Source of the DNA: Fusobacteriota bacterium
Lineage (GTDB): Bacteria > Fusobacteriota > Fusobacteriia > Fusobacteriales > JBNJFI01
Length of the DNA stretch: 26,952 nt
NCBI GenBank assembly: GCA_051746725.1
Contig: JBNJFI010000013.1
Location: forward strand, 4,735-31,686
Direction: 5' to 3'
The position numbers were made by a program, and so were the translations under genes. The notes under the pieces are model-generated. The model was not told the origin of the DNA, searched no databases, and was given only the letters and a program-made list of their open reading frames with translations. Within the stretch, counting starts at the first letter, position 1. Each line of letters begins with the position of its first letter. Positions 3,074-22,220 of the stretch are shown here, piece by piece.

Positions 3074-6000
3074 ATGTCAAAAAAAGGTATTTTATTATTG
3101 ATGGGGTTTATGTTAGTTATATTTACAGGTTGTTTGGGGCAAAATGATGAATTGGAAACGGAATATGGAGATGAAGGGTATGGAGTTAAGTTAGAGAGAG
3201 TGGAAGAAGAGGTTCTGTCTGTTAAAAATATAAATGAATTAGATGGGATAGTTTTGGAAGTTAATGATGTGTTGGAAAATGAAGAAAAAATTAATTCGGA
3301 TTACACTTTTTTTATTAAACGTCTGAAAAATTCAACTAAAATAGTATTAACTGGAGAAAAAATAAGTAAAGGTGTTGAGATATTAAGGATTGATGGATTG
3401 AAAAAAGCTTTGGAAATCCAAGTTTTAGAAGAAGAAAAGTTAGGCGAAGATCAAAAGATATCAAAAAGAGTAGAAATAGAGAATAAATTATTAGGCGATT
3501 TTAATGGGGATGATGTTGTAGATGTTGAAGATTTGAGTATGTTTTCTAGCGTTTATGGTGGCTCGTATAATGTTAGTTACGATATTTATCCATCTCAAAA
3601 AGGTTCGGGAGACTGGGGAGAAATTTATTCGACTATTAACCCTGATTCTAAAATAGATTTACATGATTTTATAATATTTGGGAGAAATTTTAACAAAAAA
3701 GTACCTAGTGTAAAAGTAGTAGAAAGATATGAAGTGACAGGAGAAACCCGAGTTAAAGAAGGGGCAGAGCTTAGTTTGGTGGCTACTGCGTATTACTCTG
3801 ATGGTTCGTCAAGTGAAGCTGGATCCATTTGGAGTTCTTCGGATGAGTTGGTGGCGACGGTTCGTTATGACTTTGGGACAGTTACTGGAAGAAGTTCTGG
3901 ATTTGCTACTATTGAAGCGACTCATAGTGAAAGTGGCCTTAAAGATAGTGTTGAAATAGAGGTTATCAAAAAAGAGGAAGAAAGTGGTATAAATATTTAT
4001 TATAAATCAAGTGGAATTCCGGATGTATGGATTTGGGAAGCCAATGATGGGTATGCTATATCAGAAGAAATGGGATATACTTGGACAGGGCGTCCTGAAA
4101 TGGAAAGGGTTCAAGATACTATAGATTGGTATGTTTATAATATCCCTGAAAATATCATAGCTTCTAAACCTGGGACTGTTCATGAAGGGGAAGAAATTAC
4201 TCTTCTTACTGAAGACTTACATATTATGTTTAATGGTTCAGGTGAAGTTGTAACTGAAGCCATTGATAGGTGGTATGATGGTGAAAATTGGTATTTAGAA
4301 AATCCTGATGATCCAATGGCTCCGTTAATAGAAATAAACCCTCGCGGTGGAGAAATAAGGGGAGATGGAACTGTCAATGTTGATATTATGGGACCAGATT
4401 TAACTGATGTGAGTATTCAAATTAATGGAGAATTGATAAGTCAATCTCCAAATTATAGCTTTCAAGTAAGTGAAGTTTTGGAAAATGGACAAACAGGGGA
4501 GTTGACGGTAACTGCTTCTAATCCTCAAGGTACGGAAAATACTGTTAAAACTTATATAAGAAATGATGATTTAACATTAGATTTTACTTGGGATAATGCA
4601 ACAGTTTACTTTGTAATGACGGATAGATTTAATGATGGAGATTCCACTAATAATAATTCATATGGCAGGCCGCAATTAGATGCTTGGGGCAATGATGTTG
4701 GAACTTTTCATGGAGGAGACTTAGCCGGGTTAACTGAAAAATTAAATGAAGGATATTTTGAAAAATTAGGAGTAAATGCGATTTGGATAACTGCGGCATA
4801 TGAACAGATACATGGATGGGTAGGTGGAGGAGCTGATGGAGATTTTGCTCATTATGCTTATCATGGTTACTATCCTCTTGATTGGACGATGGTTGACAAA
4901 AATATGGGGACAGTAGAAGACATGAGAAATTTTGTGGATACTGCTCATAGTCAAGGGGTACGAGTTGTTATGGACATAGTTATGAATCATGCTGGTTATC
5001 ATACAGTTAAAGATATGGATGAATTTGGATTTGGTTCTTTGGAAGGGATAGATGGTAGTTGGACTCCTTCTTCTAGTCAAACTTGGCATGATGCTCCTGA
5101 TTATATGACTGGTGGGAGTGAAAGTGATTGGGCGAAATGGTGGGGACCTGAATGGGTTTATGCTAGAATTTCAGAAGATCTTGAAATGCCGGGATATGAA
5201 ATTAATGGTGATGTTAGGATGTTGTATGGCCTTCCAGATTTAAAAGTTGGGCTTGATGATACATCTTCTGTAGGTGTTCCGACAATATTAGATAATAAAT
5301 GGGATCAATCTGGAACAAACAATACTGAATGGGTTGTGCCTGCTGCAGAAGAATATAGACAAAATTTAGATGCTTCTCCTGCTGAATATTTAACTAATTG
5401 GATATCATCTTGGGTAAGAGAATTTGGTATTGATGGATTTAGAATAGATACAGCTAAACATATACCTGCTGATCGTTGGAAAGAATTATATTTGAAATCT
5501 AATGATGCTCTTTGGGAATGGAGGAACGATAATCCTAATAAAGAAAGTTCTTCTTGGAGAGATGATTTTTGGATGACTGGTGAAGATTGGGGACACGGTA
5601 TAGGAAAAAGTCATTATCCAGATTATGGATTTTCTTCGATGATAAACTTTAATTTTCAAGGGCAAGGCGGTGGAGGACCTGCATATAGTTCGCCATCTGA
5701 GATGGAAGGGACTTATTCTGTTTATGCTGATACATTGAATAGTGATCCTGAATGGAACGTTTTAAGTTATATATCGCAACATGACACTGAATTATATGAT
5801 AGATCTAATCTCGTAGATGGAGGTACTAATTTATTATTACTTCCAGGAGGAGTTCAAATTTTCTATGGGGATGAAATTGGAAGAGTTGCAGGTAATGGTT
5901 TATCTGATGGAACTCAAGGAAATAGATCTTCTATGGATTGGAATAATATAGATCAAATAGTTTTAGATCATTGGCAGAAAGTGGGGCAGTTTAGAAGAGA

Positions 6001-6262
6001 CAATGTAGCGGTTGGTGCTGGAGATCATAATATTTTAAATTCAGAACCATATACTTTTAGTAGGGTTTTCAATAGAGATGGCTTTCAAAATAAAGTTGTC
6101 GTGGCTATATCTGATGGATTAACAGAAATAGATGTAAGTGGAGTGTTTTTAGATGGAGCTTCATTGCGGAATGCTTATAATGATGAAGTTGATATTGTTG
6201 AAGGTGGCATCGTGGAATTTACAGGAGAAAATGGAGTAATACTTATAGAAAAAATTAAATAA
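3074..6262 (+). CDS. Lipoprotein GH13 alpha-amylase, MalS-like (probably GH13_19), with dockerin-like, Big_2 and CBM26-like modules
   Basis: Lipobox FTGC; dockerin-like 3488-3697; MalS-type NATVYFVMTDRF and EQIHGWVGGG..GDFAHYAYHGYY; GH13 regions DIVMNH, GFRIDTAKH, WMTGEDW, YISQHD. Confidence 0.9.
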   Translation: MSKKGILLLMGFMLVIFTGCLGQNDELETEYGDEGYGVKLERVEEEVLSVKNINELDGIVLEVNDVLENEEKINSDYTFFIKRLKNSTKIVLTGEKISKGVEILRIDGLKKALEIQVLEEEKLGEDQKISKRVEIENKLLGDFNGDDVVDVEDLSMFSSVYGGSYNVSYDIYPSQKGSGDWGEIYSTINPDSKIDLHDFIIFGRNFNKKVPSVKVVERYEVTGETRVKEGAELSLVATAYYSDGSSSEAGSIWSSSDELVATVRYDFGTVTGRSSGFATIEATHSESGLKDSVEIEVIKKEEESGINIYYKSSGIPDVWIWEANDGYAISEEMGYTWTGRPEMERVQDTIDWYVYNIPENIIASKPGTVHEGEEITLLTEDLHIMFNGSGEVVTEAIDRWYDGENWYLENPDDPMAPLIEINPRGGEIRGDGTVNVDIMGPDLTDVSIQINGELISQSPNYSFQVSEVLENGQTGELTVTASNPQGTENTVKTYIRNDDLTLDFTWDNATVYFVMTDRFNDGDSTNNNSYGRPQLDAWGNDVGTFHGGDLAGLTEKLNEGYFEKLGVNAIWITAAYEQIHGWVGGGADGDFAHYAYHGYYPLDWTMVDKNMGTVEDMRNFVDTAHSQGVRVVMDIVMNHAGYHTVKDMDEFGFGSLEGIDGSWTPSSSQTWHDAPDYMTGGSESDWAKWWGPEWVYARISEDLEMPGYEINGDVRMLYGLPDLKVGLDDTSSVGVPTILDNKWDQSGTNNTEWVVPAAEEYRQNLDASPAEYLTNWISSWVREFGIDGFRIDTAKHIPADRWKELYLKSNDALWEWRNDNPNKESSSWRDDFWMTGEDWGHGIGKSHYPDYGFSSMINFNFQGQGGGGPAYSSPSEMEGTYSVYADTLNSDPEWNVLSYISQHDTELYDRSNLVDGGTNLLLLPGGVQIFYGDEIGRVAGNGLSDGTQGNRSSMDWNNIDQIVLDHWQKVGQFRRDNVAVGAGDHNILNSEPYTFSRVFNRDGFQNKVVVAISDGLTEIDVSGVFLDGASLRNAYNDEVDIVEGGIVEFTGENGVILIEKIK

Positions 6263-6273
6263 AAAATAATTTT

Positions 6274-6306
6274 AGACCCTTAGAGTTCGGATCTAAGGGT
6301 CTTTTT
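6274..6306 (+). terminator. Rho-independent terminator after amylase 1
   Basis: AGACCCTTAGA / TCTAAGGGTCT 11-bp stem followed by TTTT. Confidence 0.8.
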
Positions 6307-6610
6307 ATAATTAGATTTCAAAATATTAAAGTTTATCAAAAAAAGAACAAATAAGAATAGAGAGGGCATTCCTGTTAGGTGTGGAGTAGTTTTTTAAAAT
6401 CTACCTGGTCTAAAATAAGTTTTTAGGTGCTCAGATATTTATTAAGAGAGAAGGTGGTGAGGTTGCTCGCGATGAAGGATGGGAAGTTACAGCTTTTGGT
6501 ATAAATTTTAATGTTATTGGAATAGTTGTACCAGGTTCGTATTGATGAGAAGGTACATAAACAGTGTTATATAAGAATTAAGTTAGATATTAGAAAGAGA
6601 GGGATTGGTT

Positions 6611-9600
6611 ATGAGAAAAATAAAAGTTACACTATTTTTAGTTTTTATATTAACTCTATTTATGACTGGGTGTTTTGATGAAGAGGTGGATAAAAATTAT
6701 ATAAAGAGTACTTATAAAAATGGATGGACTAAATTTACTGCAAATAAAGATTTACATGGATTGGAGATTTCTTTTTCAGAAGGTAATATAGGGGAAGTTG
6801 ATTCTGGTGATAATTATAAAATAGTAAAAGCGAATAGAATTTTTATAGTTTCTAAAGAAAAGTTGGAAGCTGGCGACCAAATCTTTAAGATAAAGGGAAG
6901 GTATACAGAGTATATGTTAGGAGATATTGTTGAAGATTTAGATGGAAATATTGTTCAAAAAAGGTCCGGTGAAAGACTTTTAGGAGATTTTAATAATGAT
7001 AAAGAGGTAGAGCTTATAGATTTAAATCTATTTTCTGAAATTTTTGGTTCTGTTAGTGGTGATATAGGATATAGTAGTGAATATGATATGTTTCCAGCTC
7101 AGAAAGGGACAGGTGACTGGAGTAATATATATTCGTATTCGGATCCTGATGGGGTAGTAGATCTATTGGATTTTGTGATATTTGCAAAAAATTATGGAGA
7201 AGTTGCTCCAGATGAAGAGGTATATGTGACTTCTATAGAGATATCTGGAGAAAATGAATTAAATGTTGGGGGTAATATAAGCTTAGAAGCTACTGTGATA
7301 TATAGTAATGGAGATAGTTCAGTAGAATCAGTAACTTGGACAAGTGCAAATACTGATTATGCTACAGTGGATGGTTTAGGAACTGTAACAGGATTAAAAG
7401 TTGGAACAGCAACTATAAAAGCTCAAAAAGGTAATGAGTATTCAGAACATATAGTTACAATAAGTGATATAAATAGTTTTGATGGAATAAAAGTTTATGC
7501 AAAGGACTATAGTTATGTTTATTCTTGGGGAACTGCGAGTAGTCAATATGAAAAAGTAGTAAATGAGTTGATAGACCAAGGTGATGGTTGGAAATATTTT
7601 GAATTTGATATGGAAACAGCTGTAAACTTAGTATTTAGACCGAATGGTGGAGATGATTGGTCTGGTAAGACGAATGATCTATCAAGAGAGGGTAAGGGAG
7701 AGTATTGGTATTATAACGGAGAGTGGTATAACTTGAACCCTGAAAAAGACACAACAGCTCCAGAGTTGTCTGTATTGCCGGCTCCAGATAAAACGGTTGA
7801 CTTGAATAGTACAACCTATGATATCTATTATGAAGGTAACCCAGGGATAGTAAGTTTAAATATAATAGATAATAGTGATGATACTCCAGTAGGTTATTAT
7901 ACAATAGATGGGACAACTCCTTCTGGTAGTAGTACTAAATATCAAGGGGAGGATATTCAAATATCTGAAAATTTAGAATTAGAAGTTTATCTAATAGATG
8001 CTGATGGAAATAATGAGATATACAGTTATACTTTTTTGCTAAACAAAGATGTAACTGATCCAGTTATAGAATCAACTTTGGAAGCGGGAACATATGAAAG
8101 TTCTAAAGTTGTTCAATTTAATATAACCGATAATGAGGATAGCGATCCAAATATCTATTATACAGTAAATGGAACTGAACCAATTGAGGAGTTAAACTAC
8201 CTTTATACTGGACAGGAGATCTCTTTGGAAGAGGGTAAAACTAGAATAAATATTTTAGGGGTTGACGCTTCTGGAAACACAACAATAAAGGAGTTTGTAT
8301 ATTATATAGGTGATGTAAATGTTCCACGGGATTTCCGAGAAGAGACAGTATACTTTATGATGACGGATAGGTTTGCTGATGGTGATTCAACGAATAATAA
8401 TATTTGGGGAGATGAATACTTGCCAAATGGAGAAGAGGATAAATATAATACAAACTCAAGTAAAACAGGACCTTTATCATATTACCATGGCGGTGATTTT
8501 AAAGGGATAATAAATAATCTGGACTACCTTCAAGAGCTTGGATTTACTGCAATATGGATAACGCCGGTGGTGAAACAACCAGAAGGGAGACATATTTATG
8601 ATCCTAATGATACCATAACTGGAAATGGTGGTGATTATTATTCTGCGTCAGCATTTCACGGATATTGGGGATATGATTTCGATCAAATAGATCCACATTT
8701 ACATTCATCGGGGAAAGATGATGATGGTTGGGGAGACTTTGATGCACTGGTAGATGCTCTTCATGCGAGGGATATGAAATTAATGCTTGACATAGTTGTG
8801 AATCACGGACATCCAAATGCTGTTTCTCAAGAAGCTAAAATATTTGAAAAACGACAAGAGATAATAATGGATGGACAAACATGGATATGGGAGACGCAAG
8901 ATCCGTATTATACAGGAGAAGAGGGTAGCCCTGATGGGTTCTTTAGTTATGCAAGCACAAAAGGAACTTGGTTAATTGATTTACTAGATTTTAATGAAAA
9001 TGGAACAAACAATGCAAGAGAACATCTCTATAATGTGTACAAAAAGTTCATTGATCATGGGGTGGATGCATTTAGAATTGATACTGTTGCTTATATGAGT
9101 GCAGGTTTTTGGAAAGATTTTACAGAAGAGATGGATGCACATGCAAGAAGCCTTGGTAATGATAATTTTTATATGTGCGGAGAGGCTTGGACTGGAGATA
9201 GAACAGCAGCCCTTGATTTGATTTATAAAAATGGCGAAAATAAAACTTTTCATATGTTGGATCTTCACGGTTCTTCAATGGATTTCCCTGGTTGGATGGG
9301 AGCAGTATTCAAGGGAGAGAGAGGATTTGAAAACGAGAATAGTTGGCAGAGAATAGCTGGTAGTCAAGGAGATGCGTCTGGAAAATATGATCCGACATAT
9401 CTTGCAACTTTTGTTGATAATCATGATGTAACTAGAGCGAATGGTATAATGGGTAAAGAGCAGTATATGAATAATCTAACTTATATTTACCTGTTTAGAG
9501 GAATACCAGTGGTGTTTTACGGAACAGAACTCTTGTACTCTTCGTGGCCGCACTATATTACAACTACAGAAAAAGAAGATGTTGTAGCAAGGTGGATGTT

Positions 9601-9961
9601 AGGGTCGGAGGGAATTAATTATGTAAAAAATAATCAACCAGATTTAGCAAAGCACCTTAAAATGCTAAATCACTTAAGACGCTCTTCGGAAGCTTTGCAA
9701 AAAGGGCAACAAATAGATATAGTTATGGAAGGCGATCAGGCAATATTTAAAAGAGATGCAGGTTCAGCGATAGCGTATGTGGCAATGACAAAAGGTGCTG
9801 GATATTCATATGAATTTACAGGAATACCTTCTGGAACTTATAGAAAAGTTACTCCAGATAGCGCTAATGGAACTTATTCAGAGGAGTTGGTAGATATCTC
9901 TTCTGGAAGTTATAGTGTGGATGTTTCTGATAATTCATTTATTGTATTAGAGGAACAGTAA
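6611..9961 (+). CDS. Lipoprotein GH13 alpha-amylase-family enzyme with dockerin-like, Big_2, CBM26-like and two Fn3-associated/CHB_HEX_C-like modules
   Basis: ATG 6611 fits RBS spacing better than TTG 6605; lipobox MTGC; dockerin-like 6977-7198; YYTIDGTTP and YYTVNGTEP; REETVYFMMTDRF, DIVVNH, AFRIDTVAY, MCGEAW, FVDNHD. Confidence 0.9.
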   Translation: MRKIKVTLFLVFILTLFMTGCFDEEVDKNYIKSTYKNGWTKFTANKDLHGLEISFSEGNIGEVDSGDNYKIVKANRIFIVSKEKLEAGDQIFKIKGRYTEYMLGDIVEDLDGNIVQKRSGERLLGDFNNDKEVELIDLNLFSEIFGSVSGDIGYSSEYDMFPAQKGTGDWSNIYSYSDPDGVVDLLDFVIFAKNYGEVAPDEEVYVTSIEISGENELNVGGNISLEATVIYSNGDSSVESVTWTSANTDYATVDGLGTVTGLKVGTATIKAQKGNEYSEHIVTISDINSFDGIKVYAKDYSYVYSWGTASSQYEKVVNELIDQGDGWKYFEFDMETAVNLVFRPNGGDDWSGKTNDLSREGKGEYWYYNGEWYNLNPEKDTTAPELSVLPAPDKTVDLNSTTYDIYYEGNPGIVSLNIIDNSDDTPVGYYTIDGTTPSGSSTKYQGEDIQISENLELEVYLIDADGNNEIYSYTFLLNKDVTDPVIESTLEAGTYESSKVVQFNITDNEDSDPNIYYTVNGTEPIEELNYLYTGQEISLEEGKTRINILGVDASGNTTIKEFVYYIGDVNVPRDFREETVYFMMTDRFADGDSTNNNIWGDEYLPNGEEDKYNTNSSKTGPLSYYHGGDFKGIINNLDYLQELGFTAIWITPVVKQPEGRHIYDPNDTITGNGGDYYSASAFHGYWGYDFDQIDPHLHSSGKDDDGWGDFDALVDALHARDMKLMLDIVVNHGHPNAVSQEAKIFEKRQEIIMDGQTWIWETQDPYYTGEEGSPDGFFSYASTKGTWLIDLLDFNENGTNNAREHLYNVYKKFIDHGVDAFRIDTVAYMSAGFWKDFTEEMDAHARSLGNDNFYMCGEAWTGDRTAALDLIYKNGENKTFHMLDLHGSSMDFPGWMGAVFKGERGFENENSWQRIAGSQGDASGKYDPTYLATFVDNHDVTRANGIMGKEQYMNNLTYIYLFRGIPVVFYGTELLYSSWPHYITTTEKEDVVARWMLGSEGINYVKNNQPDLAKHLKMLNHLRRSSEALQKGQQIDIVMEGDQAIFKRDAGSAIAYVAMTKGAGYSYEFTGIPSGTYRKVTPDSANGTYSEELVDISSGSYSVDVSDNSFIVLEEQ

Positions 9962-10128: not shown

Positions 10129-10270
10129 TTTGTAGGAAAAAAAGTGGAGTAGTGGAGTAATAGTTATGGAAAAAGCAAATTAAATAAAAAATGATATTTA
10201 ACCCTTAGAGTTTGGCTCTAAGGGTTTTTTAATAATTATCTTTAAAATATAGAGAACTAAAAGTTTAACC
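10129..10270 (+). repeat. Degenerate direct-repeat copy of ~6218-6335 (3' end of amylase 1, terminator and downstream DNA)
   Basis: TGGAGTAATAGTTATGGAAAAAGCAAATTAAATAAAAAAT versus TGGAGTAATACTTATAGAAAAAATTAAATAAAAAAT, then a near-identical ACCCTTAGAG...TCTAAGGGT hairpin and similar following sequence. Confidence 0.7.
10200..10230 (+). terminator. Rho-independent terminator (paralogue of the 6274 hairpin)
   Basis: AACCCTTAGAG / CTCTAAGGGTT stem followed by a T run. Confidence 0.8.
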
Positions 10271-10408: not shown

Positions 10409-11062
10409 ATGAAGCGTATAATATTAATGATATTGGTAATATCTTTTTTGAGTGTCGGATGTATATTTCAAGAAGATCAAGATATAATTAAAGAAGAAGC
10501 AGTGGAAGACATTAGAGATGAAACAAATTTAGATGATAAACAAGAAGATATAAAGATACCATCTAGAAGTGTTTATTTAAAGGTTAATAAGTTGCAAATT
10601 GAAAATGGGGAGATACTTAATCAGGTTGAAAATGTGTTTGATTCAAAAAAGTTTAATTTTGATGAGGGAGATTATTACGAAGTTATTGTGTATACAAAAG
10701 AAATAAATGAAAAAATAACAGGGTTATCAGTTGCTTTAAATTATGATAAAGAGAAAATAAAAAAAGTAGGGTATGAATTGAATTCTCCTTGGAATAAAGG
10801 TTTAACTATAGAATGGAGCTCTGACGGTATATATCAATTTAATAGTGCGTTACGATCAGAAGAAAGAATATTAGATGGAAAGAATATAATAGGAAGATTT
10901 ATTTTTGAGAATGTTCTGGATAATAACGAGGGAGTAAAAAATATTTATATAAATGAAAGAATGACAAAGATGACTACAATTTCAGGAAAAGATGAAAATG
11001 GAAATAATAACTATAAAACTATATCGGATATAAATTTTGGAGGAACAATAACTATAAAATAA
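10409..11062 (+). CDS. Lipoprotein with a single cohesin-like domain
   Basis: Lipobox SVGC, acidic linker, then EGDYYEVIVY...ITGLSVALNYDKEKIK...GIYQF...G...IGRFIF...FGGTITIK, matching the cohesin beta-strand pattern (G..V.V.V, I.G..L.L.YD, terminal GG.I.I). Confidence 0.7.
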   Translation: MKRIILMILVISFLSVGCIFQEDQDIIKEEAVEDIRDETNLDDKQEDIKIPSRSVYLKVNKLQIENGEILNQVENVFDSKKFNFDEGDYYEVIVYTKEINEKITGLSVALNYDKEKIKKVGYELNSPWNKGLTIEWSSDGIYQFNSALRSEERILDGKNIIGRFIFENVLDNNEGVKNIYINERMTKMTTISGKDENGNNNYKTISDINFGGTITIK

Positions 11063-11094
11063 TATTAATTTATAAAACAGGAGGAGTGAGGGAT

Positions 11095-14000: not shown

Positions 14001-15042
14001 ATATTGGGTAGATGAATATATGGTTGATGGATTTAGATTTGACTTAGCTGGAGTATTTTATTATGATGAATTTAGAAAATGGGGGGAACACCTAAATGTA
14101 AATATGTTCCCGGATAGAAATTTAATTATGCATGGTGAGCCTTGGAATGGACACTTTTTATCTGATACTGAAATGGATCAAAAAGTTTATATTGGAAATG
14201 CTCCTGCTTTTGCAAGTGGAAGATTAGGAGTGTTCAATGCGAAATATAGAGAGGCAATCAAAGGAAATAGTGATGGAAAAATTGGAGGGTATATGTTTAA
14301 TAACGTTCCTTCATGGGATGGTGCCATTGGATCTGGAATGAAAGGATCAATAATGGCAAATAAGAGTACAAATCCTTTACCTGATCTTTGGGATCCAATG
14401 TTTGCATATGATCCTGAACAATCAATAAACTATTTAACTGCTCATGATAATTATGGTTTATGGGATAAAATAATATATACATTAAGTGATGGATCTCCTA
14501 ATGCTGGAGTGGATACTGCTTATGCAGAAAGAATAGGTAGATTTGGAATGGGAATGATATTCACTTCTCAAGGTATACCATTTTTACATGGTGGAGAAGA
14601 GATATTGAGATCTAAAACACATAATGGTGATTGGACAGATCCTGCAAACTGGGTATATGGAGATTATGGAACTCATAATACTTATAACTCTCCAGATTCA
14701 TTTAATAGTTATAAATGGGAATGGAAAGTAGATAATCTAGATACCTTTAATTATTATAAGGATTTGGTTCAACTAAGAAAAGAAAATAAAGCTCTTAGAC
14801 TTACAACATGGGAAGAAATAAATAATCATATGACAACTTGGACTGATCGAAGTGGTCAAGTAGTAATAGGTCAAATCACCGGAGTTACTGGTGCAAATGA
14901 TATAATGGTTGTATATAATTCAGGGACTAATTATACTATCGATAATACTGGATGGACTAAGATATTTGATGCATATGGATTAAATCCAACGGATCAATCT
15001 GGTGTATGTGAAGGAACAGGTATAACGGTATTTAGAAGATAA
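11095..15042 (+). CDS. pulA: Lipoprotein type I pullulanase (GH13_14-like) with dockerin-like, Big_2, two CBM26-like, CHB_HEX_C-like and CBM48 modules
   Basis: ATG 11095 preferred over GTG 11086 on RBS spacing; lipobox LGGC; dockerin-like 11494-11721; FSIWSP...DPY (CBM48), YEVHIRD, signature YNWGYDP, DVVYNH, GFRFDL, HGEPW, AHDN. Confidence 0.92.
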   Translation: MKRGLQKSFGLILLTLIFALGGCFSEKESDKGIGVELIRNGDKVSVITLRDFDGLKLKTSNGEFMSKEDDILQLDINNDEYILAGKKTIKKGSEIGTIEQSKKGLVVEIKEFEELEFESKKVIKKASENDSNILLGDFNADKIVDLNDLVLFADKYSSEISDGIYEEVYDIYPSSKGTDQDWEDIYSLSNPDGSIDLLDFVILARNFNKEEPINNVIESIQISGPTEVYVGETINLTAKAIFTDGSESTDGITWSSNDESIGTVNNGTVSAISSGSIIVEAFRDGIIQTHSVQILEQQNGIAIHVQKPSDWGAIWIWYNSDLTTPDVWDTADLAAPPGDLENYRDGWYKKTVDSTEVEFLFNNGIEDENGNWDKKFDKTGVTTAIETTNFVVTNDIWITSDGTAYDADPVGPSAPSISITPKGGDIKGSESIIVDITGENISSKEILFAGQPITISSDRTSILVSEYLTEGQEGILEATATNTEGTTTKTETFIRNDEAVTDTTIHFRKPTDWACAYIHYWNTVANPPTEWTASVLMNSTGEGWYSVTLEGDSSASFLFKDAQGSPTNTMGDFSASGEVWVENGTSYDRNPDWAQPAVLSTDPAGGYFETTQTITLNIDLDYRTTLLDSRYTIDGSDPKLNGVTFNNGDQITIGSNMVEDELKTIKVWSQVEVDADGEVLETYENISFVKGSIKQPTKLGVDYGPAASSFSIWSPDTSDVKVKVNGVEYPTEKISNFDGYSDVYSTTVQGDLHLAEYEFYINGKSVRDPYGIMVKPNTNTNIVIDLNKTGPEGGWVDIPVLENREDAMLYEVHIRDLTIDDSSGVSIENKGKYLGMVETGTDYQGVSTGIDHLKELGVTHVQILPFYDFATEMYNWGYDPVNYNIPEEQYSVDPYDYVGRINEVKTMINEFHKNGIRVVMDVVYNHTYGDEMFQDITSRYYTGNDDSGTGNGIDTGEPMVSRMIQDSLEYWVDEYMVDGFRFDLAGVFYYDEFRKWGEHLNVNMFPDRNLIMHGEPWNGHFLSDTEMDQKVYIGNAPAFASGRLGVFNAKYREAIKGNSDGKIGGYMFNNVPSWDGAIGSGMKGSIMANKSTNPLPDLWDPMFAYDPEQSINYLTAHDNYGLWDKIIYTLSDGSPNAGVDTAYAERIGRFGMGMIFTSQGIPFLHGGEEILRSKTHNGDWTDPANWVYGDYGTHNTYNSPDSFNSYKWEWKVDNLDTFNYYKDLVQLRKENKALRLTTWEEINNHMTTWTDRSGQVVIGQITGVTGANDIMVVYNSGTNYTIDNTGWTKIFDAYGLNPTDQSGVCEGTGITVFRR

Positions 15043-15045
15043 AGA

Positions 15046-15083
15046 AAAATATCCTCCTGAATAAAAAATAAGGAGGATATTTT
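15046..15083 (+). terminator. Intergenic stem-loop (terminator or mRNA-stabilising hairpin)
   Basis: AAAATATCCTCCT / AGGAGGATATTTT 13-bp stem with 12-nt loop; short interrupted T tail. Confidence 0.6.
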
Positions 15084-15123
15084 CTTAAAATTTAATTTAA
15101 AAATATAAAAAAAGGGGGATATT

Positions 15124-18021
15124 GTGCAAAGAAAAAAAAGAGTTTTTTTTAAAGTAATAATTATGATGATTTCTATTTTAATGTTTGGGTGTTTTTCTTC
15201 TAATGAACAAGATAAAGGGGTAGGTGTAAGTTTAGAAAGAAGTGGGGATCAAATCAAAATTATTGCTGCTAATGATTTTGATGGAATTGATTTAAAAGTT
15301 GAAGGAACGGATAACAATTTAAAAGAGGAAAATAATTTTACAAAGATTAAAATTGACGAAGGAAGATATATCTTAGCTGGGTCTCAAAAAATATCAGCTG
15401 GGCAAACCATAGGGACTTTAGATAATATTTCAGGAATTATAGAAGTTGAAGCTATTAGATCAGATTTAATAGAACAAGATGGTGTTGTTCAAAAAAGGGT
15501 TGATTCATCTACTACCAATAAATTATTAGGAGATTTTAATAGTGATGAAATAGTAGAAACCTTAGATTTGCAAATGTTTTCTGATGTTTACGGAATTGAT
15601 TCAACAAATGTAAATTATGATGAAATTTATGATATATATCCAGCGAACTTAGGAACCGGAATTTGGGCAGATATTTATAGTATCTCGTCTCCGGATAATG
15701 AAATTGGGTTATTGGATTTTATAATATTAGCAAGAAATTTTAATAAAGTAAAACCTAAAGAAATACAAGAAATCGTAATAGAAGGGCCGACGCAGGTATA
15801 TGAAAATGAAAGTATAAATCTGAGTGCTACTGCCATATTTACAGATAACAGTCAATCTACAGATGGAATTCAGTGGTCAAGTAGTGACGAAACCATTGCT
15901 ACCGTTACTGGAGGTAAAGTAGATGGATTGTCAGTTGGTAATTCTGATATAACTGCAAGTAGAGATGGGATAAATTCAATTTATTCAATAGAAGTTTTAG
16001 AACAACAATCTCAGGGAATAACTATATATCTTGAATCAGAAACAGCTCCAGATTTATACGCTTGGTCTACGACAGAACCTAAAGTCGAATATTTAGGGGG
16101 ATGGGACTCACCACAAAATACTTTAGTAAATAAAGATGGTTTGTTCTATTATCATACTTTTCCAGAAGAAGCTACGGAAGTAAATTATATTCCTTTTTTA
16201 GATGACCAGTCAGATGATTTATTAGCTACTCAAGACACATGGGTAACAGCAGATGGAGAGATATATAATAGTTATCCATACGGTCCTACTCCACCTAGTG
16301 TTTCAGCAAATCCTGGAACTACAAGTTTTTCTGACGATTCTATATCAGTTACTTTAAATTATAGTGGAGATGAGATATTAGAGGCTAGATATACAGTAGA
16401 TGGATCGGATCCTGCTACAGGAATATTATATCAAGATGGAGAAACAATTACTTTTGGTGAAACTTTATCTTATGAACAAAGCATGACTTTAAAATTATAT
16501 TCAACAAATGGTACTGAAATAGCTACTGATGAATTTGTATACACCAAAAAAGAAAAAGTAGCTCCAAATAATAATTTTAATAATTTAAGAATTTATCAAG
16601 TTATGGTATCTACTTTTCAAAATGGAGATAATAATATAGGGTATGGAACAGGTTATGGAGAAAGTCATCATATGGGGGATCTTGTTGGAATAAAGGAAGC
16701 AATTCCTTATATGTCTAACTTAGGAGCAAATGCAATATGGATGACTCCAATTTTCCATACTTATGGAGATGGAGCTCTTGATTCAACGGGTTACTTCACA
16801 AATGATTATTTTTCAGTGGATCCAAACTTTGGAACAGAACAGGATTTAAGAGATTTAATTGCAGAAGCAAGAAAATATAATATGTATGTTATTTTAGATG
16901 GGGTATTTGGACATCACAATGGTTCTGGAGAAATTCCCGCTTCACCAAGTGGATATACAGTTTATGGTTCAAATGACCCAGTTTCATATCCAGATAGTTT
17001 AGATTTTTATAAAGAGGTATCAACTTACTGGATAGAAGAATATGGAATAGATGGGTGGAGATTGGATCAAGCATATCAAGTGACTTCATATCAAGGAATG
17101 CAAGATAGAAGCTACTGGCCTGAAATTCGAGAAGCTGTAGAACAAGTATCTCAAGAAAGAGAGAATCAAGGAGAAACTTGGGGAACTTTAGGATATATGG
17201 TTGGAGAAATATGGAAAGGTGAACAGGAAATTAATGATTATGGTTATGAAGGGTATAATGGAGAGATAGGTTTGAGATCTAACTTTGATTTTCCTGTAAG
17301 ATATTCTTTGGTTCAAACTTTAGCGCAAGAAGAATGGGGAACAAATAATGGGAAAAGAGGATTACCAGCCTCTAACTTAGATGCTGGAATGGATAAAAGA
17401 GATATCTATCCAGATTTTGCGATACCAAATACTTTTTTGACAAATCATGATCTAATAAGATTTGGGAATTTAGTAAAAGAAGCCCATGGATATGGACAAG
17501 AAAATCCTGATTATTGGAAACGACATAAAGCGGCATTGAGTTTTTTAACTATGCAAACAGGTCCTATAACATTATACTATGGAGATGAAATTGGTCAAAT
17601 GTCTCCAGGTAGTTATGCTCCAGATGATGGTACTCCAAACGATAGAGGTTTATATTGGGATCATTGGGCTAGAGATAATGGAAAAATATCAAACTTTACT
17701 AGCCAAGAACAAGATTTACATGATTATACAAAGTCATTAATGAATTTGCGAGATACTTATTCAGCGCTATGGAATGGAGATAGAGTAAATTTAATTGGAA
17801 ATGATGAATATGTATATTCTGATTTAAAAGTTGATGGAGATCAACGGATAGTATATTTGGTAAATGTATCAACTGAAACTCGTACAGTTAGCCTTCCAGC
17901 GAGTACTGTTGGAGGAACAACTTTAAGAAATCTAATGGGAGAAAATACAATATCAGAATCTAGCGGAAACTATTCTATAAATGTACCAAGTTTATCTGGA
18001 GTATTCTATATTGTTGAATAA
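15124..18021 (+). CDS. Lipoprotein GH13 alpha-amylase (marine/Vibrio-type, possibly GH13_37) with dockerin-like, Big_2, CBM26-like and CHB_HEX_C-like modules
   Basis: GTG start with GGGGG RBS; lipobox MFGC; dockerin-like 15523-15747; LRIYQVMV...GYGTGYG.SHH.GDL, variant region I DGVFGH, GWRLDQAYQV, MVGEIW, FLTNHD. Confidence 0.88.
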   Translation: MQRKKRVFFKVIIMMISILMFGCFSSNEQDKGVGVSLERSGDQIKIIAANDFDGIDLKVEGTDNNLKEENNFTKIKIDEGRYILAGSQKISAGQTIGTLDNISGIIEVEAIRSDLIEQDGVVQKRVDSSTTNKLLGDFNSDEIVETLDLQMFSDVYGIDSTNVNYDEIYDIYPANLGTGIWADIYSISSPDNEIGLLDFIILARNFNKVKPKEIQEIVIEGPTQVYENESINLSATAIFTDNSQSTDGIQWSSSDETIATVTGGKVDGLSVGNSDITASRDGINSIYSIEVLEQQSQGITIYLESETAPDLYAWSTTEPKVEYLGGWDSPQNTLVNKDGLFYYHTFPEEATEVNYIPFLDDQSDDLLATQDTWVTADGEIYNSYPYGPTPPSVSANPGTTSFSDDSISVTLNYSGDEILEARYTVDGSDPATGILYQDGETITFGETLSYEQSMTLKLYSTNGTEIATDEFVYTKKEKVAPNNNFNNLRIYQVMVSTFQNGDNNIGYGTGYGESHHMGDLVGIKEAIPYMSNLGANAIWMTPIFHTYGDGALDSTGYFTNDYFSVDPNFGTEQDLRDLIAEARKYNMYVILDGVFGHHNGSGEIPASPSGYTVYGSNDPVSYPDSLDFYKEVSTYWIEEYGIDGWRLDQAYQVTSYQGMQDRSYWPEIREAVEQVSQERENQGETWGTLGYMVGEIWKGEQEINDYGYEGYNGEIGLRSNFDFPVRYSLVQTLAQEEWGTNNGKRGLPASNLDAGMDKRDIYPDFAIPNTFLTNHDLIRFGNLVKEAHGYGQENPDYWKRHKAALSFLTMQTGPITLYYGDEIGQMSPGSYAPDDGTPNDRGLYWDHWARDNGKISNFTSQEQDLHDYTKSLMNLRDTYSALWNGDRVNLIGNDEYVYSDLKVDGDQRIVYLVNVSTETRTVSLPASTVGGTTLRNLMGENTISESSGNYSINVPSLSGVFYIVE

Positions 18022-18088: not shown

Positions 18089-18090
18089 AA

Positions 18091-18354
18091 TAGGTAGTTG
18101 CAAAACTACAGAAAGAAACTATGAGTTTATCCACAAAGTTATTAATAGTTTTAATCTAATTTGATTTTGTATTACCCGGGCGAAGGCCCTTCGCCCTTAC
18201 GTTCAGATTACATAGGGATAAGGATATAAGTTTTTCTGTAAGGGCAAACGGCGTTTGCCCGGGTGCAACCAGTATCTAAAATTGGAGGGATACTCTAATT
18301 TATAGAACTAATAAAGCAAATGAAATTAGGATATAAGAATTTTGCAATTAGCTA
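18091..18354. mobile_element. Putative non-autonomous MITE-like element (264 bp)
   Basis: Ends TAGGTAGTTGCAAAA and TTTTGCAATTAGCTA are inverted repeats (13/15 match); flanked by identical AAATATTTTAA at 18080-18090 and 18355-18365; no ORF inside. Confidence 0.65.
18174..18264. repeat. Inverted pair of REP-like palindromes (REPIN-like)
   Basis: 18174-18200 (minus strand GTAA-GGGCGAAG-GGC-CTTCGCCC-GGGT) and 18238-18264 (plus strand GTAA-GGGCAAAC-GGC-GTTTGCCC-GGGT); 37-bp spacer; GC-rich within AT-rich DNA. Confidence 0.8.
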
Positions 18355-18380
18355 AAATATTTTAAAACAAGGGGGAAAAA

Positions 18381-21300
18381 TTGAAAAGATTAAAAGGGGG
18401 AATGTTATTATTTTTAGCAGTGATATTTTTATTTATAGGCTGCTTTAAAAATAATAATGAAGAAAATATTAATGTTAAAGGAGTAAGAGTTCTAAAAGAA
18501 AATGGAAAGATAAATATCTATTCAGATTTAGATGAGAGCCTTTTAGGTTTAGAAGTAACTATAGATAGAAAAATAAAAGAAAAAGATTTAATGATGGAGG
18601 CTGGTTATTTAGATATAACAAATATTAAAAATGAAAAGACAGAGATGGCCTTAGTTAAATTAGAGGATGCGATCAATAAAGGTGATAAAATATTTTCTGT
18701 ATCTAATATTTCAGGAAATGTATCGATAAAAGTTTCAAAGCAGAGTACTCAAGATGAATTTGATAATATTGAAAGTATTTTAAAAAATAAGAGATCTGAT
18801 GTTCCTAATATTCTTTTGGGAGATTTCACCAATAGTGGTAGAGTTGAATTGGAAGATTTGAACCTTTTTTGCCAATCATTTAAGAGTCAAAAAGGAGAAA
18901 CTCGATATAATTCAAATTATGATATTTATCCGGCTCAAAAAGGAATTGGAGATTGGGGAAATATTTATAGTGTAGTAAATCCAGATGATAAAGTAGACTT
19001 AAAAGATTTTGTTATCTTAGGTCGAAATTTTAATAAAGAAAAACCCACAGAAATAGTACCAGAATCGATATCGATATCTTTTCCAAATAATATTATATTG
19101 GGAGAACCTAACAAGTTAGAAGCTATAATAAATTATACAGATGATAGCAGTAAAATAGAAGATGTACAATGGGAGATTTCAGACTCAACAGTTGCTGAAA
19201 TTTTGAATCCAGATGGTGATGAAGGTACTGATAAGTATCTTAATGGTATATCAGAAGGAACAATAATTCTTACAGCGAGAAAATATGATTTAGTTAAGAA
19301 TAAAACGATTATAATTCAAGAAGAATTTAATGATGGTATAAAAATTAATGTAAAGGATTATAATTACATATGGGCATGGGATACTACTGATGACACAATT
19401 AACTATACTGGTGGAAGTTGGCCAGGAATAGAAATGGAAGAACATTCCAAAAAAGTTGGCTGGTATACATACATGATATCATTAGAAGAATTAAATGGCG
19501 TAAATGATGTAAGCGTTATTTTGAGTGAGACTGGAAGTAACCAATCTGCAACGAAAAACTTAGAGGTTGGAGAATGGTGGTATGATGGAAGTTGGCATGA
19601 TCATGATCCGGATATTGATATATTGCCACCAAGTGAAATCGTTAGTACTCCAAAGTCTGGGAATCATGAAGAGAGTAATCTGATTATTTCTTTAGAAGCT
19701 ATAGATAATATAGATCCAGAACCAGTGATTTATTATACTTTAGATGGAACTATTCCAGATGAAACAAGTGAAGTGTACACAGAATCAATAAATATCAATT
19801 CAGATACTACAATAAAGGCTATGGCAGTAGATAATGTAGGGAATGGATCTGAGATTTTTCAACTGGAATTCAATTTAAATAGAGATATTTATCCTCCTGT
19901 AGTTGGAACTTCAATAGAACCAGGTAGATATGATAATCCACAGACATTGATGTTAGATATTTCTGATGATAAAGATAATACTCCACTTGCTTATTATACG
20001 ATAGATGGGACTACTCCTACGAAAGAGTCAACGCTTTATAATGGACAATCTTTAAATGTAGAAAACGATACAATTATAAAGGTGTTAGCAGAAGATAAAT
20101 CTGGTAATAACAAAATATATAGTTTTAGATATGCTATTGGTGAAATTAATTTACCTGAAAGAGACGATTTTAGACAAGAAAGTGTATATTTTTTGATGAC
20201 AACTAGATTTTATGATGGAGACTCTTCAAATAATAGATACACTAGATGGGGACTAAATGCAGGGAATGATGAAAATAATGATCCAGGTTGGAGAGGTGAT
20301 TTTGCTGGATTAATAGAAAAATTAGATTATATAAAAGCACTTGGATTTTCAGCTATATGGATTACTCCTCCTGTTTTGAATAGAAGTGATGGAGATTATC
20401 ACGGGTATCATGCTTGGGATATGAGCCAAATAGATGGAAGATTAACTTCTCAAGGAGCATCTTATCAAGATCTTATTGATGCTGCCCATGATAAGGGACT
20501 AAAAGTTATTCAAGATATTGTATTAAATCATAGCTCGAGGTATGGAGAAAAAAATCTAGGCGGAAGAATTCTATGGGGTGACCCAGATGATCCAGATTGG
20601 GGAAATGCTAAAAATGGTGGAGAAGCTGATTATTATGATGAATATAATCCAGATTTTGAATATGATGGAATAACAACAGAACCTATATCAGGTAAGTCAA
20701 ATATGTATATAGGAGATGTTTATCAGACTGAAAAACCAACTCAAGAAGATTTGCCTTGGTTATGGGAAGATGGAGATGATGATTTTTCAAATAATCCTTA
20801 TTTAGAACCATATTTAAACTTAGACTATATGACTTATGGAGAATTAGTTCCTAACCTTGATTTATGGGGAGGAACAACTAAATGGACTAGTGATGAAGGA
20901 TGGAAAATATATCAATATCAATGGTCAGAATTTGGATATAGTTTATTGAACCCTGAAATATATCATATAATGACTTTGAAAAATTGGGAAGACTATACTT
21001 GTCAACTGGGGTCTATACATCCGGATTGTGTTGACTTGAATACTGAAAGCAAACCAGTTCAAGATTATCTAATTGATACCTACAATCGATATATTGAAAT
21101 GGGAGTAGATGGATTTAGGATAGATACTGTTAAACATATAAGTAGGGTAATGTTTAATAGACATTTTATACCAGCTTTTGAAGAAAAAGCAAGACAAGTT
21201 AGAGGTAAGGATGATTTTTATATGGTTGGAGAAGTTGCAACTCGTGTTGGTGAGGTTTGGAATAAAGGGCACGCTCCATTATCTGTTCCGTTTTATACAT

Positions 21301-22220
21301 GGAAAGAGAGAACTGAATATAGTGCGGATGATGAAAAAGCTGCTTGGGAAGGTTATAATTATGAAGAAGGAAGAGGAACTTCAGATCAACCAACAAGTAA
21401 TAATCATTATTTAGAAGGAAATGATTATAGAGAACCTGATTACACTGAATCTTCTGGACTAGATGTTATAGATTTTAGAATGCATTGGAACTTCCAAAGC
21501 GCAGGATCTGCTTTTAATGTCAAAGATGGAGATCATTTTACTAATGATGCCACTAAAAATTTAACATATGTTGAATCACATGATTATAGTCCTGTGGAAA
21601 TAGGTGGAGATCATTATGCTAGAGTAAGTGATGAAGCTACAATGGCAGAAAATTGGAGTTTGATGTTTACTTGGAGAGGAATCCCAACTATATATTATGG
21701 TAATGAAATATTATTTAAAGCTGGGGCTCAAATAGATGGAGATCCTAATAAATTGCAGTTAGAAGATTCAGGAAGAGCTTATTATGGGGAACATCTAGAG
21801 GGAACTGTAGAGGCTAGTGATTTTGGAGAATATACTGCTAGTGGGACTGTTGCCCAGACTTTGGAACATCCATTGGCTCAACATCTAATAAGATTAAATA
21901 AGATTAGAAGATCTATACCTGCTCTTCAAATGGGACAATATTCAACTGATGGAATAAGCGGTGCACTTGCATTTAAAAGGAGATATACAGATGATAATAT
22001 AGATAGTTTTGCTTTAGTAAGCATTTCAGGAGATGCTTCTTTTTCAGAAATACCTAATGGAAGATATGTAGATGCTGTTACTGGAGATGAAAAGCAGGTA
22101 ACAGATGGTAATTTAAATATATCAGTTTCAGGCAAGGGGAATATTAGAATATATGTATTAGATACAGTTAAAACATTAGCTCCTGGAAAAATTGGTGAAG
22201 ATGGGAAATATATTTATTAA
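18381..22220 (+). CDS. Lipoprotein GH13 alpha-amylase (possibly GH13_42-like) with dockerin-like, Big_2, CBM26-like and two CHB_HEX_C-like modules
   Basis: TTG start with GGGGG RBS; lipobox FIGC; dockerin-like 18813-19037; YIWAW...WPG..M...GWY (CBM26-like); DFRQESVYFLMTTRF, DIVLNH, GFRIDTVKH, MVGEV, YVESHD. Confidence 0.9.
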   Translation: MKRLKGGMLLFLAVIFLFIGCFKNNNEENINVKGVRVLKENGKINIYSDLDESLLGLEVTIDRKIKEKDLMMEAGYLDITNIKNEKTEMALVKLEDAINKGDKIFSVSNISGNVSIKVSKQSTQDEFDNIESILKNKRSDVPNILLGDFTNSGRVELEDLNLFCQSFKSQKGETRYNSNYDIYPAQKGIGDWGNIYSVVNPDDKVDLKDFVILGRNFNKEKPTEIVPESISISFPNNIILGEPNKLEAIINYTDDSSKIEDVQWEISDSTVAEILNPDGDEGTDKYLNGISEGTIILTARKYDLVKNKTIIIQEEFNDGIKINVKDYNYIWAWDTTDDTINYTGGSWPGIEMEEHSKKVGWYTYMISLEELNGVNDVSVILSETGSNQSATKNLEVGEWWYDGSWHDHDPDIDILPPSEIVSTPKSGNHEESNLIISLEAIDNIDPEPVIYYTLDGTIPDETSEVYTESININSDTTIKAMAVDNVGNGSEIFQLEFNLNRDIYPPVVGTSIEPGRYDNPQTLMLDISDDKDNTPLAYYTIDGTTPTKESTLYNGQSLNVENDTIIKVLAEDKSGNNKIYSFRYAIGEINLPERDDFRQESVYFLMTTRFYDGDSSNNRYTRWGLNAGNDENNDPGWRGDFAGLIEKLDYIKALGFSAIWITPPVLNRSDGDYHGYHAWDMSQIDGRLTSQGASYQDLIDAAHDKGLKVIQDIVLNHSSRYGEKNLGGRILWGDPDDPDWGNAKNGGEADYYDEYNPDFEYDGITTEPISGKSNMYIGDVYQTEKPTQEDLPWLWEDGDDDFSNNPYLEPYLNLDYMTYGELVPNLDLWGGTTKWTSDEGWKIYQYQWSEFGYSLLNPEIYHIMTLKNWEDYTCQLGSIHPDCVDLNTESKPVQDYLIDTYNRYIEMGVDGFRIDTVKHISRVMFNRHFIPAFEEKARQVRGKDDFYMVGEVATRVGEVWNKGHAPLSVPFYTWKERTEYSADDEKAAWEGYNYEEGRGTSDQPTSNNHYLEGNDYREPDYTESSGLDVIDFRMHWNFQSAGSAFNVKDGDHFTNDATKNLTYVESHDYSPVEIGGDHYARVSDEATMAENWSLMFTWRGIPTIYYGNEILFKAGAQIDGDPNKLQLEDSGRAYYGEHLEGTVEASDFGEYTASGTVAQTLEHPLAQHLIRLNKIRRSIPALQMGQYSTDGISGALAFKRRYTDDNIDSFALVSISGDASFSEIPNGRYVDAVTGDEKQVTDGNLNISVSGKGNIRIYVLDTVKTLAPGKIGEDGKYIY

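Follow-up and report, generated by a model that had tools for sequence, protein, structure and literature searches.

We propose, with a probability that we put at about one half, that a gene cluster of an uncultured, deep-branching Fusobacteriota bacterium encodes a working cohesin-dockerin system that displays starch enzymes in a diderm by means of lipoproteins and one-slot cohesins, without a multi-cohesin scaffold. The cluster lies in a stretch of 26,952 nucleotides (assembly GCA_051746725.1, contig JBNJFI010000013.1, positions 4,735 to 31,686), here called the window, whose first letter is position 1 in the coordinates below. Six plus-strand genes, A to F, span 3074-22220: five (A, B, D, E, and F) encode GH13 enzymes with N-terminal dockerins, modules of the type on which cellulosomes rely, and C, situated between B and D, encodes a non-catalytic protein that is probably a divergent single cohesin. 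An earlier note on this DNA, made from the letters alone, had described such enzymes and a cohesin lipoprotein and had read them as a multi-enzyme starch complex in a probably non-ruminococcal host. The host is indeed non-ruminococcal: its genome (2.18 Mb in 155 contigs, 28% guanine-cytosine [GC], 97% complete, with the window on contig C13) is the only member of its own family among 190 Fusobacteriota genomes, and the outer-membrane markers that it encodes, Omp85 and two secretins, indicate a diderm envelope. The note overlooked a cohesin-like domain and a dibasic linker in each enzyme, and these likely change the mechanism.

Five GH13 Enzymes Carry Atypical N-Terminal Dockerins

The five enzymes are all built in the order lipobox, reduced cohesin-like domain of about 90 amino acids, dibasic linker, dockerin, immunoglobulin-like (Ig) or CBM spacers, and GH13 domain. 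Gene A (3074..6262, 1062 amino acids) has the lipobox cysteine C20, a KR linker, a dockerin at residues 139-208, a Big_2 domain, and the catalytic residues D792/E837/D904. Gene B (6605..9961, 1118 amino acids) has C23, KR, a dockerin at 125-199, and D826/E860/D941, with spacers assigned by Pfam to Big_2 and two CHB_HEX_C/Fn3_assoc domains. In gene D (11086..15042, 1318 amino acids), for which the ATG at 11095 is the likelier start, C26 and a KK linker are followed by a dockerin at 137-212, Big_2 and two CBM26 spacers (Pfam), and D986/E1018/D1121. Gene E (15124..18021, 965 amino acids) combines C23, the reduced domain at 29-117, a dockerin at 134-208, Big_2, and D648/E695/D776, and gene F (18381..22220, 1279 amino acids) has C21, KR, a dockerin at 145-219, CBM26 and two CHB_HEX_C/Fn3_assoc spacers (Pfam), and D915/E951/D1068. 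The Pfam Alpha-amylase model was matched above its cut-off in all five enzymes, and the Asp-Glu-Asp catalytic triad was intact in each. All six proteins of the cluster show a basic N-terminus, a hydrophobic stretch, and a lipobox cysteine (a regular expression agreed for the five enzymes) and are thus probable lipoproteins by pattern. Short acidic patches follow the lipobox cysteine in all six, which we take to resemble the export signal of Bacteroidetes lipoproteins.

Both linkage types of starch appear to be covered. Protein A matched the PRK09505 models of NCBIfam with up to 481 bits, under their cut-offs, and is probably a MalS-like alpha-amylase. For D, the best family by far was TIGR02104 (437 bits; the cut-off of 504.5 was not reached), and besides its intact triad the protein contains the motif YNWGY, which we take to be the signature of type I pullulanases; D is thus predicted to be a type I pullulanase-like, alpha-1,6-acting enzyme. 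The CBM26 domains and long Ig spacers of the module-bearing enzymes suit polymeric starch.

The five dockerin-like modules were 47-58% identical in all 10 pairs, and a profile built from them matched seven open reading frames (ORFs) at E<1e-29 among the 9272 ORFs of the genome, the next match having an E of 0.65. Among the sequences of the Protein Data Bank (PDB), this profile gave 22 matches at E<=1, the best being the type II dockerin 2Y3N_B (E 1.6e-5); from entry names, we take all 22 to be dockerin-bearing chains. An AlphaFold2 model of residues 29-210 of E from a 31-row alignment reached a predicted local distance difference test score (pLDDT) of 89 and a predicted template-modeling score (pTM) of 0.83. 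In structure comparisons with VIA, its dockerin (residues 134-208; 15523..15747, plus strand) aligned with 2Y3N_B over 58 residues (Z 8.5, root-mean-square deviation [rmsd] 2.5) and with 2OZN_B over 55 (Z 7.2, rmsd 1.7), and the two dockerin helices of the model lie at 118-125 and 168-176. The first calcium (Ca) loop reads DFNxDxxV[DE]xxD in A, B, D, and E and is slightly degenerate in F (T for N, S for D), and the second is split by a conserved insert of 17-18 residues in the 19 of 22 rows in which it was measurable, apart from one row with 23 residues; in the dockerin of D (11494..11721, plus strand), the first loop is canonical and the insert has 18 residues.

Because the insert splits the second Ca loop, the dockerins were missed by Pfam in the whole proteins. 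Neither Dockerin_1 nor Cohesin matched any of the six, NCBIfam likewise showed no such family, and a Dockerin_1 scan of genomes missed this genome altogether. When the modules were isolated, 16 of 22 matched Dockerin_1 at E<=0.1, and that of D, with 23.3 bits, passed the cut-off of 22.9. These results indicated that the enzyme modules are true but atypical dockerins, type-II-like and N-terminal. The earlier description of five GH13 genes with a lipobox and homologous N-terminal dockerins was thus borne out by ORFs, Pfam, triads, and profile, as was the dockerin identity by PDB matches, isolated modules, and fold; the lipoprotein nature of all six products and the presence of both alpha-1,4 and alpha-1,6 enzyme types also agree with the predictions above. 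The Pfam check that the note had proposed thus gave matches for most isolated modules, with that of D above the cut-off, and none to these families for whole proteins or isolated C. In a dockerin tree, the seven dockerins of this genome clustered weakly (support 80/77); no branch was starred, and therefore this grouping by genome is only a hint.

The module was not confined to the one compact locus of the note. Two further module-bearing lipoprotein GH13 genes lie on contig C39 (L001:11388-17639), and all seven module proteins of this genome are GH13 enzymes. A truncated gene upstream of the C39 pair, whose open frame ends at 17632, has no Pfam match; on visual inspection, it is similar to the C-terminal part of a 599-amino-acid module protein of the relative G004 (L029:9900-11696) that has no GH13 match either. 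A second cluster in this genome (L092; C61:1-12851) holds five module-free GH13 genes including a pullulanase; a lipobox is present in four of them, and the contig end truncates one.

Protein C Is Probably a One-Slot Cohesin

Gene C (10409..11062, plus strand) encodes a non-catalytic probable lipoprotein of 217 amino acids (C18) with an acidic tether and a predicted single divergent cohesin at residues ~52-217 (10562-11059). In the ESM-Atlas, 25 of 30 matches to C bear the Pfam Cohesin domain (score 0.92). The best non-self match among 1.84 billion proteins (E 1.4e-5) was a protein with four Pfam cohesins; that search gave four matches, two of which (E 8-9e-4) look unrelated. Homologues of similar length were not recovered in searches over 119-380 and 73-291 amino acids, which returned C only. 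When seven cohesin-like domains of Thermotogota-type proteins with the same dockerin were made into a profile, C itself being excluded, C ranked first of 9272 ORFs (14.1 bits, E 0.017; 0 of 1984 shuffles), and three of four such domains tested matched Pfam Cohesin (E 0.0015-0.006). The single-sequence AlphaFold2 model of C was poor (pLDDT 44.5); its best cohesin in VIA had Z 6.0 at rank 13, and in Foldseek eight of the ten top rows were cohesins, none at E<=0.001. Taken together, these results suggest that C is probably a divergent single cohesin.

We modeled C, folded with an alignment, in complex with the dockerin of D. The model scored 0.77, 0.77, and 0.71, against 0.01 for the best of three controls, the runs sharing at least 95% of contacts with a pLDDT of 90-91 for the dockerin and 88 for C; pairs attaining this score mark numbered 116 of 157 among those with solved structures and 2 of 215 among mismatched ones, counts that are rough here as our own alignments were used, and, since cohesin-dockerin complexes abound in the PDB, the score shows likeness to them and not binding of this particular pair. 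Helices 1 and 3 of the dockerin both touch C in the model. The predicted binding face lies on a beta-sheet of C and comprises G105, L132, I134, A147, and L148; G105 and I134 do not vary among the eight cohesins aligned, and the other three are conservatively kept. On this modeling, C probably binds at least one of these dockerins, in line with the interaction that the earlier note had foreseen.

A single cohesin makes C a one-slot anchor and not a scaffold, holding one enzyme per copy, so that it cannot alone build a multi-enzyme complex, as the note had supposed, unless it oligomerizes. No multi-cohesin protein was found in the 97%-complete genome of 155 contigs with the profiles used, which divergent cohesins escape.

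Each Dockerin Is Preceded by a Dibasic Linker and a Reduced Cohesin-Like Domain

Every enzyme has an all-beta domain of about 90 amino acids between lipobox and dockerin (19-33% pairwise identity, linker included). In E, this reduced cohesin-like beta-sandwich spans residues 29-117 (15208..15474, plus strand) and was modeled by AlphaFold2 with a pLDDT of 89; homologous domains occur in A, B, D, and F. Its nearest structures in VIA included the cohesins 2JH2 (Z 7.8), 2W1N (7.3-7.5), 2VO8 (7.2-7.3), and 2XDH (7.0), with 82-84 residues aligned at an rmsd of 2.3-2.5; cohesins made up 15 of 50 rows, and the domain is about 45 residues shorter than they are. Neither the reduced domain nor a second cohesin-like family matched the family of C significantly when profiles were compared. 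Since the domain has no link in sequence to cohesins, its assignment is only a lead. The fold and the tight packing against the dockerin in the monomer model nevertheless allow that it binds a dockerin, a claim for which we find the case evenly balanced.

The linker is the only segment of the E model with a pLDDT below 50. A dibasic pair occurs here in 22 of 22 modules, where 3.7 would be expected from composition, and KR in 14 of 22 (0.56 expected), in sequences that are related and in a linker window chosen after the motif had been seen, both of which tell against giving these counts their full face value in support of our proposal. In E, the conserved site is Lys124-Arg125 (15493..15498, plus strand), a candidate cleavage site. 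Whether the linker is cut in vivo we would judge a toss-up. Two GH13 proteins of the relative G007 have the reduced domain and the basic site without a dockerin; therefore, domain and site form a unit of their own, as a cleavable lipid-anchored pro-domain would.

Module-Bearing Enzymes in Relatives and Beyond the Phylum

Full modules were found in 3 of the 190 Fusobacteriota genomes: this one (7), G004 (6), and G007 (7, all reaching into the dockerin and one of them atypical, plus four partial matches). None of the 52 genomes of family f4 had a module, and three weak matches in family f2 (E 4e-5 to 4e-4) were not counted, as they cover only the low-complexity N-terminal part. The only Dockerin_1 match in f2 (L116; G134:C3) lies among ORFs that look GC-rich, unlike Fusobacteriota, and is probably a contamination of that genome.

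G004, which belongs to the same order and is 97% complete, has orthologues of all five enzymes, scattered, with its module genes on six contigs. A tree built from 19 catalytic domains grouped each of B, D, E, and F with a G004 enzyme and put A in a clade with one (support at least 99); the catalytic domain of B is 58% identical to its G004 orthologue. Since all five enzyme types have counterparts there, the panel is older than this genome. The compact locus described by the note thus holds for the six genes here and not for G004, where C was not detected. Weak Pfam Cohesin signals in G004, G007, and G002 were discarded, as they are below cut-off and their ORFs look unrelated. In G007, a gene for a 190-amino-acid lipoprotein is followed by one for a 1037-amino-acid protein whose dockerin is divergent and which matches no Pfam family (L036:2353-5992; G007:C460), possibly another anchor-cargo pair; the lipoprotein (L036:5423-5992) looks cohesin-like by eye, failed every test as a cohesin, and is not used as evidence.

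The genome contains a candidate second cohesin-dockerin pair on contig C35 (L119:2799-4802). Its secreted, non-lipoprotein M6 metalloprotease has a C-terminal dockerin-like tail (21.7 bits against the cut-off of 22.9) that is more canonical than the GH13 modules. The next gene encodes a lipoprotein of about 145 amino acids, which Pfam Cohesin did not match; a profile of its three members matched the cohesin 2VO8 (E 0.0014) and had a weak match to the cohesin of NagJ. The pair is kept in this genome, G002, and G007 (L119, L121, and L122), and, as G002 has no GH13 module, it is a separate system. Judged from sequence, the pair shows that this lineage has more than one case of an apparent one-cohesin lipoprotein encoded next to a dockerin gene; the search for more cohesins that the note had suggested thus returned this second cohesin-like lipoprotein and no multi-cohesin protein.

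Outside the phylum, the cassette consists of lipobox, reduced domain, full cohesin-like domain, dockerin, and payload. Its carriers are a Tepiditoga sp./Thermotogota protein and contigs of 44-50% GC, and the payloads comprise a papain-like protease, FN3, a beta-propeller, and a caspase-like domain, so that the system is not limited to starch as had been assumed. The 44-50% GC contigs are near-identical copies from a single lineage, and the gene immediately upstream on them encodes a lipoprotein whose last domain is cohesin-like. Thermotogota-type lipoproteins with papain-like, FN3, or propeller payloads were seen at L069, L080, L067, and L079; some have a second, C-terminal cohesin-like domain and could, by their domain order, polymerize. 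Of the 21 metagenome loci retrieved with a DNA pattern of the module, 15 contain the module and 6 match by chance; the pattern retrieved no viral loci. A single-protein scan of named genomes gave two loci, L037 and L038, the former an ordinary dockerin-like match.

Organization of the Locus

A promoter-like site with a TG-extended -10 lies upstream of A (2990..3018, plus strand; 10 of 12 consensus matches, weak), the whole promoter scan being at chance level (96 sites vs 103.6 in shuffles). A terminator-like hairpin follows A (6274..6302, plus strand), and a near-identical copy (10200-10226, plus strand) precedes a promoter-like site (10300-10328), found by consensus matches, upstream of C. 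The flanks of the two hairpins are also similar, and the pair may be the trace of a local duplication. Because C begins downstream of a hairpin and a promoter-like site and only 23 base pairs separate it from D, C and D probably form one operon.

Eight salt-lake metagenome runs of RNA libraries contain part of the window, and four contain at least half of its words. The contigs of X1, X2, X4, and X7 gave depth in 29, 30, 22, and 15 of 30 bins of the locus; this coverage means presence and not level or strand, with DNA carry-over uncontrolled, and depth was not used to rank genes. Contigs bridge D and E (X2, 13201-15507), which does not prove a single transcript. Between E and F lies a GC-rich imperfect palindrome (18175-18265), and, as RNA-library contigs diverge from the window at 18174, 18203, and 18264, it suggests a dispersed repeat.

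Upstream of A, the window contains an ORF for a 75-amino-acid 2x[4Fe-4S] ferredoxin-like protein (2607-2834, plus strand) and an ORF for a Nif11-like leader peptide with a core rich in Gly, Ala, and Ser (1744-2154, minus strand; weak matches below cut-off), possibly a precursor of a ribosomally synthesized and post-translationally modified peptide. Downstream of F, at 22396-25444 (plus strand), a glutathione synthetase-like ATP-grasp gene overlaps a fused N-formylglutamate amidohydrolase-like/QEGLA (MATCAP) gene.

Discussion

A dockerin on an enzyme that is already anchored by lipid is redundant unless its link to the lipid is severed or it forms a lateral bond. The first of these could come from the linker and the second from the built-in cohesin-like domain, and we therefore favored a cleave-and-redock mechanism. 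The enzymes would receive their lipid and then reach the outer surface, probably through a secretin-based system encoded beside another GH13 lipoprotein, and all six proteins of the cluster may be exported in this way. The dockerin is modeled to bind C through helices 1 and 3, and the reduced domain, in the same chain or a neighboring one, may be a further binding partner. An Arg/Lys-specific protease, for which a clostripain-family lipoprotein is a candidate, would cut the linker, after which the enzyme would be held by the Ca-dependent cohesin-dockerin bond alone and could stay in place, move to C by exchange, or be released onto starch. C would then be a reserve one-slot anchor, its gene sharing a transcript with that of the pullulanase. 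That stable assemblies of two or more different enzymes arise is a tentative idea, and we lean somewhat against it. Unlikely as a whole is a scaffold-free Gram-negative amylosome in which each enzyme has its own lipid-anchored mini-cohesin, protease site, and dockerin, clasps itself after cleavage, forms head-to-tail mixed alpha-1,4/alpha-1,6 arrays, and allows swapping or release, the same cassette being a general cleave-and-redock system in deep Fusobacteriota and Thermotogota.

The genes for such export and cleavage have candidates in this genome. At L091:4097-14395 (contig C12) and L097, pilin-like, PilM-like, and secretin genes are closely followed by a gene for a lipoprotein GH13, a neighborhood that recalls the Klebsiella pul locus; secretin and GH13 neighbors were also found in G002, G004, and G007, which like this genome branch deeply. 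A clostripain-family (C11) lipoprotein is encoded on contig C86 (L112:1492-3078), and the family occurs in 7 of the 190 genomes, including all three with the module.

Several observations weigh against our proposal. In the structure comparison of the reduced domain, a viral capsid domain ties with the cohesins (Z 7.7), and the range of Z 7-8 is possibly generic for this tool; the domain showed no similarity to cohesins in sequence, 1 of 27 scoring above all its own shuffles. At the linker, D has KK instead of KR, C11 proteases are Arg-specific according to an excerpt of PMC12445089, the 45%-GC relatives and P0013 have no obvious dibasic site after the domain, and four clostripain-bearing genomes have no module. 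Regarding C, a second profile, to which two unverified G007 sequences had been added, gave it 2.6 bits, equaled by 46 of 2000 shuffles; HHalign with the Thermotogota profile gave only 12% probability; Pfam Cohesin had no match to isolated C at E<=1; and a PDB sequence search with C returned no cohesin among eight weak matches. The complex score may reflect a memory of solved cohesin-dockerin structures, a wrong cohesin not being among the controls. In G004, with its six modules, no convincing stand-alone cohesin was found with C, Pfam, or three other queries. Finally, seven other lipoprotein GH13s of this genome have no module (28 GH13 ORFs checked), and therefore neither anchoring nor starch use requires it.

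The last two points are accommodated if dockerin and reduced domain are locked together within one chain as a dyad, similar to an X-module-dockerin and acting as a tag for folding, spacing, or export, with the enzymes working as independent lipoproteins and C being a leftover or binding something else. The monomer model does place the two domains against each other with confidence (pTM 0.83), and the dockerin is redundant as an anchor. However, the reduced domain stands without a dockerin in G007, and in the Thermotogota-type proteins a whole cohesin lies between the two, so the two need not form a dyad. Nor does the model superpose as one body on known X-dockerin chains (Foldseek rmsd 14-15 Å), and the hydrophobic C-facing residues are conserved across the 22 dockerins, where they may also be core residues. 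We consider this explanation quite unlikely.

At the other extreme, C could be a hub scaffoldin that gathers the five enzymes into one amylosome, for example via oligomers or dense membrane patches. Its cohesin-like nature, its predicted binding to the D dockerin, its place in the middle of the cluster just upstream of D, and the weak, unstarred clustering of the seven dockerins would fit such a role, but the single cohesin of a 217-residue protein, the lack of any multi-cohesin protein found in the genome, and the scattered G004 panel with no C detected make it improbable. Little probability also attaches to the view that the module is a general lipoprotein cassette for display or envelope tethering, shared with Thermotogota, possibly periplasm-facing in its generic anchor-plus-cargo pairs, and spread onto amylases by gene duplication in a starch specialist. 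The diverse payloads of domain-plus-dockerin elsewhere and the G004 module protein without a GH13 match speak for it; against it stand the exclusive use of the module on GH13 enzymes here, the starch-suited CBM26 and Ig spacers, and the conservation of the enzyme panel across two families. The cleave-and-redock display system therefore remains our preferred reading.

Among known systems, Clostridium perfringens provided three of the closest folds for the reduced domain (2JH2, 2W1N, and 2VO8; the fourth, 2XDH, is from Archaeoglobus) and one of the closest dockerin folds (2OZN). Its non-cellulosomal enzymes pair directly, without a scaffold, and its cohesins, of about 135 amino acids, occur in secreted hydrolases of host glycans. 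In contrast, the cohesin-like domain here has about 90 amino acids, is lipid-anchored, and sits on starch enzymes. The best dockerin match in sequence and fold was to type II pairs of the SdbA type (2Y3N, 2B59, 5G5D, and 4U3S), with which the present system shares an anchor protein with one cohesin and, in our model, the contact of both dockerin helices with the cohesin; unlike the SLH anchor and scaffoldin cargo of that type, the anchor here is lipid and the cargo is enzymes. The domain preceding the dockerin is not arranged as the CipA X-module.

The following comparisons draw on excerpts of the papers cited. As in our cluster, the amylosome of Ruminococcus bromii comprises dockerin-bearing GH13 amylases, a pullulanase with CBM26, and single-cohesin partners, and its Amy4 carries both cohesin and dockerin and can bind itself, a precedent for the two modules in one enzyme (PMC4611034; PMC9112005). 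R. bromii is Gram-positive and has the sortase-anchored Sca2 and Sca5, whereas here the cell is a diderm and every enzyme a probable lipoprotein; the words "lipoprotein" and "lipobox" are absent from the main text of PMC4611034. Different from R. bromii are also the N-terminal dockerin with its insert, the reduced domain and dibasic linker in each enzyme, and the absence of a multi-cohesin scaffoldin from what we found. By analogy, the present system may work like the R. bromii amylosome, a class in which membership would need binding and complexes to be shown; genes and models are what we present.

Klebsiella PulA with its type II secretion is likewise a surface lipoprotein acting on starch in a diderm, comparable to the secretin cluster beside a GH13 gene here and in three relatives; unlike our system, PulA is one enzyme without a dockerin and is shed in micelles with lipid (PMC2996285). 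Two other diderms come near: Saccharophagus degradans has many lipobox carbohydrases and distant, putative cohesin- and dockerin-like motifs (PMC2386152), and for Ca. Stygibacter (Cloacimonadota), a dockerin-scaffoldin system including a GH57 enzyme was predicted (PMC8542988). The latter has a 3,755-amino-acid multi-cohesin scaffoldin with a C-terminal attachment domain, in contrast to the one-slot cohesin lipoprotein here, and the excerpts of both accounts describe neither lipobox, cohesin-like domain, and dockerin together on a GH13 enzyme nor a one-cohesin lipoprotein (PMC2386152; PMC8542988). In Cellulosilyticum lentocellum, adjacent genes for a single cohesin and a dockerin, as at our locus, yield a functional heterodimer, but that pair is cellulose-related, Gram-positive, and has one dockerin, against seven or eight here (PMC13487519). 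A full-text literature search, with most subscription papers outside its scope, gave no account of this architecture and none that joins cohesin, dockerin, Fusobacteriota, and starch. The main text of a genome survey of cellulosome bacteria contains none of Fusobacter-, Thermotog-, GH13, and lipoprotein (PMC11557425), and the excerpted part of a 2025 review holds no relevant passage (PMC12484212); an earlier mention of the Thermotogota modules is possible.

The amylosome has been characterized in R. bromii, a Gram-positive gut species, and the present cluster would be a diderm version in a phylum not known for such systems; if true, the principle extends to lipoprotein anchoring and outer-membrane export. 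That none of six whole proteins was detected means that Pfam-based surveys miss a cohesin/dockerin family. The compact divergent pair and the cohesin-like domain of about 90 amino acids could become parts for designer cellulosomes and Gram-negative surface display. For the biology of these bacteria, the system raises the question of why a lipid-anchored enzyme should need a dockerin, and the dibasic linker together with the mini-cohesin offers a concrete candidate answer.

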